A DNA stretch of 64,000 bases from Escherichia phage 215Ecol030PP (PP328843.1); one strand, 5' to 3'; shown: positions 40,224-47,056, counted from the stretch's first letter. Notes: generated by a model from the letters alone, not told the origin. Translations and numbers: made by a program.

Positions 40224-41811
<1,588 letters not shown>

Positions 41812-41819
41812 AATAAAAT

Positions 41820-41833
41820 GGGCCTTGCGGCCC
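41820..41833 (-). terminator. hairpin between nrdB and denA
   Basis: GGGCC-TTGC-GGCCC. Confidence 0.4.
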
Positions 41834-41838
41834 ACTCC

Positions 41839-42341
41839 TTAAAAGTATTTTTTAAAACTCATCATAACTTTATCATCAACATCATTATCAATCTGTGCAA
41901 CAAGGTAAGATGACAATTCTACTTCTTGTGGCGCAGATTGAACATTATCAGAATTAAGATATTCACGAATCCAAGGATATGGATGTTTAACCGGAGCATC
42001 GGTAATTGGGCATGGAAGACCACACTGCTTCATACGAGATACAGTTAAGTAATCAATAAAGCTCCACATGCTATTTGTATTTAATCCAGGAACATCTCCA
42101 TCTTTAAATAAATGAACTGCCCAATCTTTTTCTTGGCGGTTAACTTCCATGAAAATATCAACTGCTTCTTGTTCACACTCTTGAGCAATTTTAACCCATT
42201 GATCGCCATCAGTACCAGATTGAAGTTGACGAATAATATATTGGGTGCCTTTAAGGTGAAGCTGTTCATCGCGTGCAATGAACTTCATAATCTTGGCATT
42301 ACCTTCCATGATTTCCATATTCTTATGGAAGTTAAAGGTAC
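41839..42341 (-). CDS. nrdB: ribonucleotide reductase small subunit NrdB, exon 2
   Basis: Frame continues ...TFNFHKNMEIMEGNAKIM...; joins exon 1 in frame via codon T|GT (Cys). Confidence 0.85.
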
Positions 42342-42932
42342 CGTATGTTCGATTGAGCTCGCTAATTCTCAACCCGTTCTCTTATGAACTGCTGCATGTT
42401 ACCATGCAGTCCAGACTATATCACAATCCCGGAGGGATTCTCCCCATTTCGAGTCGCTTGACCCTACGTCCGAAGACTAGTCGTTGAACCTTGTTTTGCA
42501 ATTGTCGCCGTGCCATCGTTTATATGTTGATGGTGATAAATCTTTCTTATCACAATATGGACAATTCAATTGAATTCTATTTGGATTTAATTTACATCTG
42601 TCATTATGTTTTAGATAAAATCCAGGACCTTTACCAATGTGACCGCAGAAATCACATGTGATTTCTTTTTGTGCAGGATGGGTCCCGTTCTTAACCATTT
42701 CTAATGTTTTGCTGATGTTCTTTTCTTATGGTCTTCCATCAGAATCTTTAGGTATAGGTCCGTTAGCATCTATCCAAATTTTTCTATAGTTCAATTGTGC
42801 ATCCTCTTAAAAGTATAATCATATTATACTAATTAAAGGTGCAAGCAAAACCTTGGCTGCTAGTTTTCCATAAAGGACTTTCCAGCAATTAAAGGAGTTT
42901 TCGATAAACGTTACCGTTTAAAGGCGCATTTT
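42342..42932 (-). mobile_element. group I intron in nrdB with degenerate homing-endonuclease ORF
   Basis: In-frame stop right after exon 1; 3' region GACTGCATGGTAACATGCAG parallels td intron P7; splice sites placed after U (42933) and G (42342) restore a 1179-nt ORF. Confidence 0.75.
42477..42698 (-). pseudogene. truncated intron endonuclease remnant (I-TevIII-like)
   Basis: 73-codon ORF inside the nrdB intron with Cys/His cluster CDFCGH...CPYCDKK...HGDNC; too short for an intact endonuclease. Confidence 0.55.
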
Positions 42933-43608
42933 ACGCAAAAGATACATAAAAACGAATAGCTTCTAAGGCATTAATAACGTGCAAACAGAGGTAAAGAGAT
43001 TTCATTAAAGCACGTTTAGCTTCGGCTTCTTGTTTAATAGCTCGGTTTAAACGAAAGACGGCATCAGGAGATTCTTTAGCTAGTTCTACAAATTCTTTAG
43101 CATTTTCCCATTCACGGGTTTTAATCAGAACATCATCATAATAACGTCCAATTGATTCAGCACGTTTCATAATAGCTTCATCTAATACAATCTCATCAAA
43201 TACCTTCGATGGATCAGTATAAAGATTTCGCATGATATGAGTATATGAACGACTGTGAATAGTTTCACTAAAAGTCCATGTAGCAACCCATGTATCAAGA
43301 CTTGGGTCTGAAATTAATGACATAAGTACAGCAGACGGTGCACGGCCCTGAATGCTATCCAAAAGTGATTGATACTTCAGATTATTAGTAAAAATATCTT
43401 GCTGATATTGAGGAAGCTTATTAAACTGTGCAGCATCCATCATTAAGTTAACTTCTTCGGGACGCCAGAAAAAACTGATCTGCCGCTCAATGAGTTCTTC
43501 AAATACTCGATGTCGTTGAATATCATATCGAGCTAAACCTAATCCAGAACCAAAGAACATCGGTTCATTCAAAACATCAACAGGGGATGTATTAAAAACT
43601 GTACTCAT
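42933..43608 (-). CDS. nrdB: ribonucleotide reductase small subunit NrdB, exon 1
   Basis: N-terminal 225 aa ending ...LEAIRFYVSFA then intron. Confidence 0.88.
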
Positions 43609-43659
43609 AAATTTTCCTCTTAGTTAATAGTTAGTGACTCGTCCATGAGTCATATTATA

Positions 43660-45924
43660 TCATAATTTACAGGATGAACAATCTTCAGCTTTTGGAGTTT
43701 CTATTTCATAATCATCAGTACCAGAACCATCACGGGTATTATGATAATAGAAATTTTTAATGCCATAATACCATCCGTATAGCATGTCATCAATCATTAT
43801 TGACATTGGAACCTTGCCTTTAGGGAAGATTTGGGGGTCATAGTATGTATTCGCCGAAGCTGATTGACAAACCCATTTCAGCATAATAGCTACCTGCGTA
43901 AGATAAGGTTTATTACCTTTCTTAGCTAATTTCCATGTATAATCATAGAGGTCTATGTTATGCTCAATATTGGGCACGACTTGATTAAAGGAGCCCTCTT
44001 TTGATTCTTTAACAGAGACTGGTCCACGTGGAGGCTCGATACCGTTTGTACTGTTAGAAACTTGGGAAGATGACTCACATGGCATAAGTGCTGATAATGT
44101 GCTATTACGGATGCCAAAGAGCTTAAGGTCTTCCCGCAGCGCCGACCAGTCACAAACGTATTTTGGAGCTGCGATTTGGTCAATCTTTTTATTGTACCAG
44201 TCGATAGGTAGTTCGCCTCGAGACCAACGAGTGTCTGAATAATATTCGCAAGGTCCTTTTTCTTTGGCGAGCTTAATGGATGCTTTAATGAGTCCATACT
44301 GTAATCTCTCAAATAGTTCATGTGTTAAATCGTTAGCATCTTCATAAGAAGCAAAGTTACTTGCCAGCCAAGCTGCATAGTTAGTAACACCTACACCGAG
44401 GTTACGACGCTTTTTAGCTTTTTCTGCTTCAGGAACTGGATATCCTTGGTAATCCAACAGATTATCAAGAGCACGAACTTGAACTTCTGCCAATTCATTA
44501 ATTTTATCTTGGTCTTGCCAGTCAAAATTATCTAGTACGAATGCGCTAAGGGTACACAATCCAATTTCAGCATCAGGGCTATTCACATCATTTGTTGGAA
44601 TAGCAATTTCACAACACAAGTTACTCTGACGAATAGGTGCCTTTTCACGAATAAACGGAGTATAGTTATTCGTATTATCAATGAACTGTACATAAATCCT
44701 TGCTGTTCCTGAACGTTCAGTCATGAGCAATTCAAATAGTTCACGGGCTTTAATACGCTTTTTACGAATATTAGGGTCTTTTTCTGCTGCTTCGTATAAT
44801 TCACGGAAACGGTCTTGGTCTTTAAAATAAGAATAATAAAGCTCTCCACCCATTTCATGTGGACTGAACAAAGTAATGTAATCGTTCTTTCCAAATCGTT
44901 CCATCATCAAATCATTCAACTGAACACCATAATCCATATGACGGATGCGGTTTTCTTCTACGCCTTTGTTATTTTTCAAAACGAGAAGATTTTCAACTTC
45001 CAAATGCCAAATAGGATAATAAGCAGTAGCAGCGCCGCCACGAATTCCACCCTGTGAACATGATTTAACTGCAGTCTGAAAATGTTTCCAAAAAGGAATA
45101 ACACCAGTATGGCGTACTTCACCTGTGCCAATCTTAGAACCTTCAGCACGAATCATACCAACGTTAATACCAATTCCAGCGCGTTTAGAGATATATTCAA
45201 CAATTGAAGCAGAAGCCTTATTGATAGACTTCAGTGAATCGCCTGCCTCAATAACAACGCATGAACTAAACTGCCGAGTTGGAGTACGGCAACCAGCCAT
45301 AATAGGAGTTGGTAATGAAATCTGTCGAGTAGATACCGCTTCATAAAAACGGATAACATGTTTTAATCTATCAACAGGTTCATCTTGATGCAATGCCATT
45401 CCAATAGTCATAAATGCAAACTGTGGAGTTTCATAAATTTGACCAGTGGTTTTATCTTTAACTAGATATTTTTCTTTTAATTGCATCGCCCCGGAATAAG
45501 TAAATTCCATATCCCGCTCGTGCTTAATTTTTGATTCTAAAAATGTAATTTCTTCTGCTGAATATTTTGACAATAATTCAGGGTCATATTTACCTTCATT
45601 TACACAGTAAGAAATATGGTCAATAAATGAACGTGGTTCATATTGTCCGTAAACATGCTTACGAAGAGCAAACATTAAACAGCGTGCAGCTACATATTGA
45701 TAATCAGGCTCTTCAACCGAAATAGAATTCGCAGCAGCCTTAATGACAATAGTCTGAATATCATCAGTTGTCATTCCATCACGGAGATAAGATTTAATAT
45801 TTTCATATAATTCATAAGGATCTACTGATGTTCCCTCAGCTGCCCAAGATAAAACTTTAATAATTTTTTGTGGGTCAAAGCTCTGAGAAACACCACTACT
45901 TTTGATAACATTAATTAATTGCAT
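43660..45924 (-). CDS. nrdA: ribonucleotide reductase large subunit NrdA
   Basis: 754 aa, T4 NrdA size. Confidence 0.95.
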   Translation of the reverse strand: MQLINVIKSSGVSQSFDPQKIIKVLSWAAEGTSVDPYELYENIKSYLRDGMTTDDIQTIVIKAAANSISVEEPDYQYVAARCLMFALRKHVYGQYEPRSFIDHISYCVNEGKYDPELLSKYSAEEITFLESKIKHERDMEFTYSGAMQLKEKYLVKDKTTGQIYETPQFAFMTIGMALHQDEPVDRLKHVIRFYEAVSTRQISLPTPIMAGCRTPTRQFSSCVVIEAGDSLKSINKASASIVEYISKRAGIGINVGMIRAEGSKIGTGEVRHTGVIPFWKHFQTAVKSCSQGGIRGGAATAYYPIWHLEVENLLVLKNNKGVEENRIRHMDYGVQLNDLMMERFGKNDYITLFSPHEMGGELYYSYFKDQDRFRELYEAAEKDPNIRKKRIKARELFELLMTERSGTARIYVQFIDNTNNYTPFIREKAPIRQSNLCCEIAIPTNDVNSPDAEIGLCTLSAFVLDNFDWQDQDKINELAEVQVRALDNLLDYQGYPVPEAEKAKKRRNLGVGVTNYAAWLASNFASYEDANDLTHELFERLQYGLIKASIKLAKEKGPCEYYSDTRWSRGELPIDWYNKKIDQIAAPKYVCDWSALREDLKLFGIRNSTLSALMPCESSSQVSNSTNGIEPPRGPVSVKESKEGSFNQVVPNIEHNIDLYDYTWKLAKKGNKPYLTQVAIMLKWVCQSASANTYYDPQIFPKGKVPMSIMIDDMLYGWYYGIKNFYYHNTRDGSGTDDYEIETPKAEDCSSCKL

Positions 45925-46794: not shown

Positions 46795-47056
46795 CATTAT
46801 GTTCAGATAAGGTCGTTAATCTTATCCCGGAATTATATCCAGCTGCATGTCACCATGCAGAGCAGACTATATCTCCAACTTGTTAAAGCAAGTTGTCTAT
46901 CGTTTCGAGTCACTTGACCCTACTCCCTAAAGGGATAGTCGTTAGGCATTTAGGTAGAACCAAAGTCCTACAATTTAGCACGGGATTGTCTACTAGAGAG
47001 GTTCCCCGTTTAGATAGATTACAAGTATAAGTCACCTTATACTCAGGCCTCAATTA
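46795..47056 (-). other. group I self-splicing intron in td, 262 nt, no endonuclease ORF
   Basis: Starts UAAUUGAGGCCUGAGUAUAAGG... right after exon-1 GGU and ends ...CUGAACAUAAUG, as recalled for the T4 td intron; only a 16-nt loop where T4 carries I-TevI. Confidence 0.8.

Follow-up and report, generated by a model that had tools for sequence, protein, structure and literature searches.

A T4-type nrdB group I intron with a truncated and further decayed I-TevIII gene in a T4-like Escherichia phage

What interrupts the nrdB gene of Escherichia phage 215Ecol030PP (PP328843.1), and can the interrupting element still splice and move? The window, i.e., the whole 64,000-nt stretch of DNA that was analyzed, is a segment of a T4-like (Tequatrovirus) phage genome that is approximately 95 to 96% identical to SHFML-11, RB3, and relatives over 20 kb and matches none of them identically. 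Its minus-strand gene order is likewise that of T4, with rnlA, denA, nrdB, nrdA, two small open reading frames (ORFs), and td following one another. The features that frame the locus are listed below.

40224-41384, minus strand: rnlA
41401-41835, minus strand: denA, with a GIY-YIG domain
41839..42341, minus strand: nrdB exon 2, 503 nt including the stop codon, 5' end GUACCUUUAAC
42342..42932, minus strand: group I intron of the T4 nrdB type, 591 nt, 5' end AAAAUGCGCC, 3' end ...AACAUACG, terminal G at 42342
42933..43608, minus strand: nrdB exon 1, 676 nt, 3' end ...UUUUGCGU, its final U (42933) lying in the P1 U.G pair
43660-45924, minus strand: nrdA
46795-47056, minus strand: td group I intron, 262 nt, Rfam score of 65.5 bits
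47240-47525, minus strand: tandem duplication in td exon 1, 141 nt, 2.0 copies, 100% identity

Boundaries and identity of the nrdB interruption

Read from 43608, the nrdB frame proceeds to ...RFYVSFA and then meets TAA at once, just as the original prediction had stated, the stop codon being composed of the last exon-1 base and the first two intron bases. Excising 42932..42342 joins ...UUUUGCGU to GUACCUUUAAC and produces a 1,179-nt ORF of 392 amino acids, the product of which reads ...YVSFAC followed across the junction by TFNFHKNMEIMEGNAK. This spliced NrdB is collinear with E. coli R2 (1piy; E value, 1.8e-125) over residues 3-388, with no gap at the junction (RFYVSFAC-TFNF versus RFYVSFAC-SFAF), and is the same as T4 NrdB around that point, ...YVSFAC-TFNF... 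being present in both. Although T4 NrdB counts 388 amino acids rather than 392, the two proteins differ only by scattered substitutions and in a variable patch at about residues 171-200, which is of a non-T4 kind here and has four extra residues. The proposed 591-nt interruption and restoration of the frame were thus upheld, since the 392-residue product is continuous against both T4 NrdB and E. coli R2.

The insertion point lies inside codon Cys226 of nrdB, which is the canonical T4 site. The splice sites had been placed by the rule that an exon ends in U and the intron in G; the last exon-1 base is indeed U (42933), the last intron base is G (42342) at the end of ...CAUACG, and these boundaries coincide with those of the annotated T4 intron. 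A megablast search with the 591-nt intron retrieved the same element in 190 phage records. Positions 1-591 align end to end with the 598-nt T4 intron at 98.5% identity, and the matched T4 interval (AF158101 138458-139055; X04140 1201-1798) is exactly what separates the two segments of the nrdB coding sequence as annotated in T4. When the window is aligned with T4, LH2, and SHFML-11, no intron position within 1-92 or 430-591 varies among the four. The window, T4, and SHFML-11 also agree in the 20 exon bases that flank the intron on either side, whereas two exon-2 bases differ in LH2. Every difference from the T4 intron falls in the ORF-holding loop L6a. The interruption is a real intron and no chance pattern, because as many as 190 phage records hold the same element, and the element itself is already known, being an allelic form of the T4 nrdB intron and its defective I-TevIII gene.

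Ribozyme fold and related introns

The element shows a complete group I fold in which all core helices from P3 to P8 are present, including the P3/P7 pseudoknot. Its parts are distributed as follows.

42924..42936, minus strand: P1, read from the sequence, in which exon GCGU (42936-42933) pairs with guide GCGC (intron 6-9, 42927-42924)
42845..42920, minus strand: ribozyme 5' half, placed by the pair table and identical to T4, with P2 (intron 13-28), the P3 5' strand (36-41), P4/P5 (46-75), and the P6/P6a 5' strands (76-88)
42500..42844, minus strand: loop L6a (intron 89-433), holding what is left of the I-TevIII ORF and its expression unit
42342..42499, minus strand: ribozyme 3' half, placed by the Rfam match and the pair table and identical to T4, with the P6a/P6 3' strands (intron 434-445), P7 (451-455/515-519), the P3 3' strand (488-493), and P7.1, P7.2, P8, P9, P9.1, P9.2, and the terminal G

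P1 is short (4 bp), sets the pair U42933.G42927 at the 5' splice site, and is identical in T4. P3 consists of CUCCUU paired with GGGGAG and P7 of GACUA paired with UAGUC, while P6a closes the loop that holds the ORF. The 3' ribozyme core is common to 871 phage records.

The fold was examined for covariation by aligning the ORF-deleted nrdB intron with six relatives, all of them phage group I introns: the td intron of the window (65.5 bits), two Staphylococcus phage introns (103.7 and 95.1 bits), one from Pseudomonas phage KIL1 (71.9 bits), the first intron of the DNA polymerase gene of Pectobacterium phage phiTE (52.1 bits), and one intron of Pectobacterium phage PcaP1EGY. Automatic alignment with MAFFT misplaced the short P5/P6 of the nrdB intron and was replaced by a block-wise alignment, anchored by hand on conserved single-stranded joints. 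Canonical pairs occupied 444 of 456 cells and compensatory changes were found at 45 of the 67 pairs, both counts being biased upward by an alignment that is partly structure guided. Covariation was seen in P3, P4, P7.1, P7.2, P8, P9, and P9.2, with P7 invariant; the covariations in P3, P4, P7.1, P7.2, P8, and P9, which lie between invariant anchors, are robust.

A comparison within the same DNA is offered by the td intron. P7, J8/7, P7.2, and P9 of the td intron (window, T4/RB3) are nearly identical in sequence to those of the nrdB intron, the helix set from P2 to P9.2 is common to both, and the endonuclease ORF likewise belongs in L6a, whereas the host gene and the splice context differ, as does the endonuclease family, which is GIY-YIG (I-TevI) for td. 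The likeness of the nrdB intron 3' region to td, which the original prediction had pointed out, was borne out, as this region and the td intron of the same window are alignable, with P7 (GACUA/UAGUC) invariant. The two introns belong to the same phage intron lineage. The td intron of the window is itself without the I-TevI ORF, 754 nt of L6a being cleanly missing relative to RB3 (GTAGGACT joined directly to TTGGTTCTAC; blastn HSPs), while the ORF-containing form of approximately 1 kb is found in 25 of the 25 best phage-database matches.

Two further observations concern these relatives. The polymerase gene of phiTE has two introns, the first of which (L005 929-1655) is 76% identical to the nrdB intron in its 3' core, has a P9.1 hairpin (GUUCAUAAGAGAAC) identical to that of the nrdB intron, and carries in L6a an HNH ORF whose 3' end reaches into the P6/P7 strands. 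Such resemblances point to what may be an intron lineage widespread among phages, one that has passed from gene to gene and from host to host. Separately, the duplication in td exon 1 is in frame, repeats 47 codons (QHDSLIQGKTVWDENYENQAKDLGYHSGELGPIYGKQWRDFGGVDQI) in thymidylate synthase, and has no counterpart in RB3 or the remaining best matches; it may have arisen recently in the phage, or it may be an assembly artefact.

Differences among nrdB introns themselves spare the fold. In both ESh36 and FL23, a G-C pair of P9 has become A-U by changes on both sides, and the other ribozyme changes in these two alleles are only of the G.U type, in P6a and P9. Structure-preserving changes of this kind are the expectation under continuing selection for splicing, which they would indicate. 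The T4 nrdB intron self-splices (PMC2988022), and the intron described here is probably splicing competent as well, because its ribozyme and splice sites are 100% identical to those of T4. The nrdB pre-mRNA would fold so that P1 (GCGU/GCGC) sets the U.G pair at the 5' splice site, next to a P3-P8 core with the guanosine pocket in P7 and the peripheral elements P2, P7.1, P7.2, and P9-P9.2. Exogenous guanosine would then attack after U42933 and the freed exon after G42342, thereby joining the exons for the 392-residue NrdB, whereas on unspliced RNA the TAA at the boundary would halt ribosomes.

One may ask instead whether splicing has been lost, nrdB being a pseudogene for which the host reductase compensates. 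The td gene of the same window also looks perturbed, by its 47-codon duplication, which would agree with such a loss. However, all ribozyme nucleotides and both splice-site contexts are those of the self-splicing T4 intron, both nrdB exons are intact and highly conserved, and the structure-preserving substitutions in related alleles indicate continuing selection on the fold, so that we regard the loss of splicing as hardly credible.

A scan for group I introns with Rfam had been suggested as a check and gave a divided answer. The nrdB intron matches RF00028 with an E value of 2.8e-7, yet its score of 35.7 bits remains below the gathering threshold of 50 bits; scanning the whole window at the gathering threshold therefore reports the td intron only, and the nrdB intron appears when an E-value threshold is used. 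RF00028 places only the 3' half correctly and forces the 5' half onto ORF sequence. The T4 nrdB intron obtains the same 35.7 bits and the SHFML-11 long form 35.6 bits. We considered the low score as evidence against the intron and rejected it, since the proven intron of T4 falls short equally; the scan cannot decide the matter. The shortfall is due to the ORF in L6a (approximately 340 nt or more) and not to the fold.

The same threshold has left its mark on public annotations. In GenBank records such as those of LH2, SHFML-11, Manna, and FL18, nrdB is routinely annotated as two separate genes because the Rfam gathering threshold misses the nrdB intron, and some of these records add spurious antisense "hypothetical proteins" within it. 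That the gathering cut-off misses both this intron and that of T4 is a caveat for annotation pipelines.

The I-TevIII remnant and its decay

Loop L6a would formerly have housed the HNH homing endonuclease I-TevIII, of which the following pieces can be located.

42798..42843, minus strand: hairpin hiding the I-TevIII Shine-Dalgarno sequence (AAGAGG), -14.9 kcal/mol, z = -3.6
42726..42794, minus strand: N-terminal stub of I-TevIII with a TTG start, 22 codons (LNYRKIWIDANGPIPKDSDGRP), stopping just past the deletion junction
42727..42736, minus strand: deletion junction GAAGACCATA, the one remaining, hybrid copy of a direct repeat of 10 nt
42707..42710, minus strand: A4 run, A5 in T4 and all other alleles, hence a 1-nt deletion
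42477..42698, minus strand: 73-codon ATG ORF, 100% identical to I-TevIII residues 197-269

The long form of the element is represented by SHFML-11 (RB3 type), whose 1,090-nt intron has the same site and ribozyme as the one described here and contains a TTG-started ORF of 269 amino acids; it occurs in approximately 80% of about 100 intron-bearing phage records. Compared with this long form, the window is without 491 nt encoding the HNH motif and linker and without the late-promoter motif. The deletion is out of frame, is flanked by the repeats GAAGA[A/C]CATA (GAAGAACATA upstream and GAAGACCATA downstream), and takes away I-TevIII residues from about 22 to 190, including the HNH motif. Pfam places PF13392 HNH_3 at residues 4-48 of the full-length 269-residue homologue (E value, 6e-13), and a Pfam search of the 73-codon ORF did not detect this domain. 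Nor is a full-length endonuclease hidden by a frameshift, the 491 nt being physically absent. What is left upstream is the stub, corresponding to I-TevIII residues 1-21 and using the native TTG start as annotated in SHFML-11.

The 73-codon ORF with a Cys/His cluster that had been read as a truncated endonuclease of the I-TevIII type was recovered at 42477..42698, and comparison with full-length I-TevIII resolved the remnant into a C-terminal module with two zinc fingers and the 21-codon N-terminal piece, the HNH domain being gone. Both zinc fingers of the ORF (CX2CX12-13HX3C) are intact, with C15/C18/H31/C35 in the first and C46/C49/H63/C67 in the second. The last 23 nt of the ORF (42477-42499) double as the P6a/P6 3' strands, J6/7, and the P7 5' strand. 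RB3-type I-TevIII is active as an HNH endonuclease, has two zinc fingers, and functions as a dimer; its zinc ligands include C211, C214, C242, and C245 (PMC1865063). Its minimal DNA-binding construct is 166C, while the protease-stable fragment 194C binds two zinc ions and dimerizes but does not shift homing-site DNA (PMC1865063). The ORF described here closely matches 194C in extent and is shorter than 166C. As judged from these sequence comparisons, the remnant derives from I-TevIII and is no functional HNH homing endonuclease. Among IMG/VR contigs, distant matches (27 to 56% identity) to the second zinc finger were found in many unrelated viral contigs, presumably within other homing endonucleases.

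The signals that would serve expression of the remnant have decayed as well. The sequence TATAAATA is the T4 late-promoter consensus. It is present in the T4, SHFML-11, and Manna introns but absent from the whole intron described here, where, compared with T4, a 6-nt deletion in the hairpin loop has taken it out. The stem of the hairpin, which pairs UGCACCUUU with AAGAGGAUGCA, is the same as in T4, whose loop is longer. In the known system, hairpin and late promoter together regulate I-TevIII, as the ribosome-binding site becomes free in late transcripts that start from the loop (PMC2988022). Upstream of the ATG at 42698 there is no Shine-Dalgarno sequence. The remnant is probably not expressed. 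A scan of the region for sigma-70 promoters and terminators was uninformative, with 6 sites against 5.0 expected.

Set against T4, whose 598-nt intron has the same site, the same 491-nt deletion, and the same repeats as the 591-nt intron described here, and whose ORF likewise lies in L6a with a 3' end that forms the P6/P7 strands, the allele of the window differs in a small number of positions. The junction reads GAAGAACATA (A) in T4 and GAAGACCATA (C) here, there is one synonymous TGT-to-TGC change, and the promoter motif and one base of the A run have been lost. In T4, a 97-codon URF leads from an out-of-frame ATG (42769 here) into the zinc-finger frame, whereas here that reading stops after 22 codons. 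Through the loss of the promoter motif and the extra frameshift, the present allele is one step more decayed than that of T4.

Truncation and decay recur among wild phages, each with its own lesions. The deletion and its C-type junction GAAGACCATA are shared by the window with six other wild truncated alleles, i.e., those of Salmonella phage Manna, Escherichia phages LH2, FL18, and FL23, Shigella phage ESh36, and the IMG/VR contig UViG_2974742932, the last being the one close relative, another truncated allele, retrieved by an IMG/VR scan with the 73-residue ORF. The C and A junctions would reflect either independent deletions via the same 10-nt microhomology or a later single-base change; the truncation may have arisen more than once through this microhomology. 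The 6-nt promoter deletion is shared with LH2, FL18, FL23, and the IMG/VR contig. LH2, FL23, and the IMG/VR contig carry a 2-nt deletion of their own, FL18 and ESh36 a 1-nt deletion that differs from that of the window; ESh36 has, moreover, lost 12 nt in frame and has a promoter motif altered by a point mutation. FL18 likewise ends up with a 73-codon ORF, via a different deletion. Such allele-specific lesions are the pattern expected for a neutrally decaying gene beside a conserved ribozyme.

The A4 variant at 42707-42710 calls for caution. None of 50,697 phage records contains it, and the best hits (99.0% and 98.4%) have one gap each; either this phage alone carries it or it is a homopolymer error. 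Should sequencing or assembly have erred here, the actual allele would carry the 97-codon URF of the T4/Manna type, with the rest unchanged. The site lies in an A5 homopolymer and the best matches differ by exactly that gap, and the suspicious perfect 141-nt td duplication in the same window might signal assembly problems. On the other hand, FL18, ESh36, LH2, FL23, and the IMG/VR contig have 1-nt or 2-nt deletions of their own nearby, so that lesions of this kind are expected in a decaying ORF, and the 73-codon ORF of FL18 is reached by another deletion. We thus consider an error unlikely, while keeping it in mind for this single position.

A different reading concerns the zinc fingers themselves. 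The 73-residue module might be an expressed small protein under selection, for instance, a dimerizing or operator-binding factor. From Met197 onward to its stop, the frame is uninterrupted in 8 of 8 truncated alleles, all three independent frameshifting indels fall within 96 nt upstream of the ATG, and the sole indel inside the frame (12 nt, in ESh36) is itself in frame; by a rough post hoc estimate, such a pattern has a probability of about 0.01 to 0.04. The 194C fragment is, moreover, a stable zinc-loaded dimer (PMC1865063). Several points weigh against such a role, i.e., 194C does not bind homing-site DNA (PMC1865063), the ATG at 42698 has no Shine-Dalgarno sequence before it, the late-promoter motif is gone, and the only good ribosome-binding site is hidden in the hairpin. 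In addition, substitutions and events among the alleles are so few that the open frame has little statistical weight, and the ribozyme constrains the final 23 nt of the ORF in any case. That residues 197-269 are retained by selection as a stand-alone protein in truncated introns, rather than being neutral debris, or that they act as an expressed factor of the kind just named, is accordingly very unlikely in our judgment.

Neutral decay, which we prefer, would have taken the following course. A 491-nt deletion between the repeats would have left the 22-codon stub and the two-zinc-finger module, and later lesions, i.e., the 6-nt deletion of the promoter motif and the 1-nt deletion in the A5 run, would have followed, the 73-codon ORF alone being left.

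Mobility, the nrdB mosaic, and what the element represents

An intron that has lost its own nuclease may still be spread by a neighbor. The defunct T4 intron is inherited at high frequency only via mobE, a free-standing HNH gene whose product nicks intron-less nrdB near codon 42 and carries the intron along (PMC2790892). T4 has mobE and nrdB.1 between nrdA and nrdB, whereas the window has neither: between the nrdA stop (43660) and the nrdB start (43608) lies a 51-nt spacer (43609-43659) with no mobE, nrdB.1, or other ORF. The intron has neither a nuclease of its own nor a neighboring helper gene, and it is probably immobile, because the HNH motif is lost and mobE is absent. The element would be unable by itself to cut intron-less nrdB and would persist as a harmless, splicing-competent passenger.

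The host gene bears traces of its own history. The first approximately 450 nt of exon 1 are T4-like, and its last approximately 150 to 200 nt, which encode the variable patch that is longer by 4 residues, resemble LH2 and SHFML-11, as does the intron. Codon 42 is CGG (Arg) and lies within the T4-like part. The CGG allele at this codon has been tied to mobE-bearing phages (Wilson and Edgell, PMC2790892). The nrdB gene is a recombinant mosaic, and this fits the recombinational mosaicism known for the region.

The interruption is almost certainly the T4 nrdB group I (IA2-type) self-splicing intron from which the I-TevIII gene has been deleted and then decayed further, leaving what would be a splicing-competent but immobile passenger. 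As a textbook element in another T4-like phage, it carries little weight as a discovery. Its modest value is that of a natural record of late degeneration in the life cycle of a homing element: the ribozyme is frozen in the T4 state, mobE is absent, and, in different wild phages, different lesions erode the endonuclease gene together with its late-promoter motif and reading frame.
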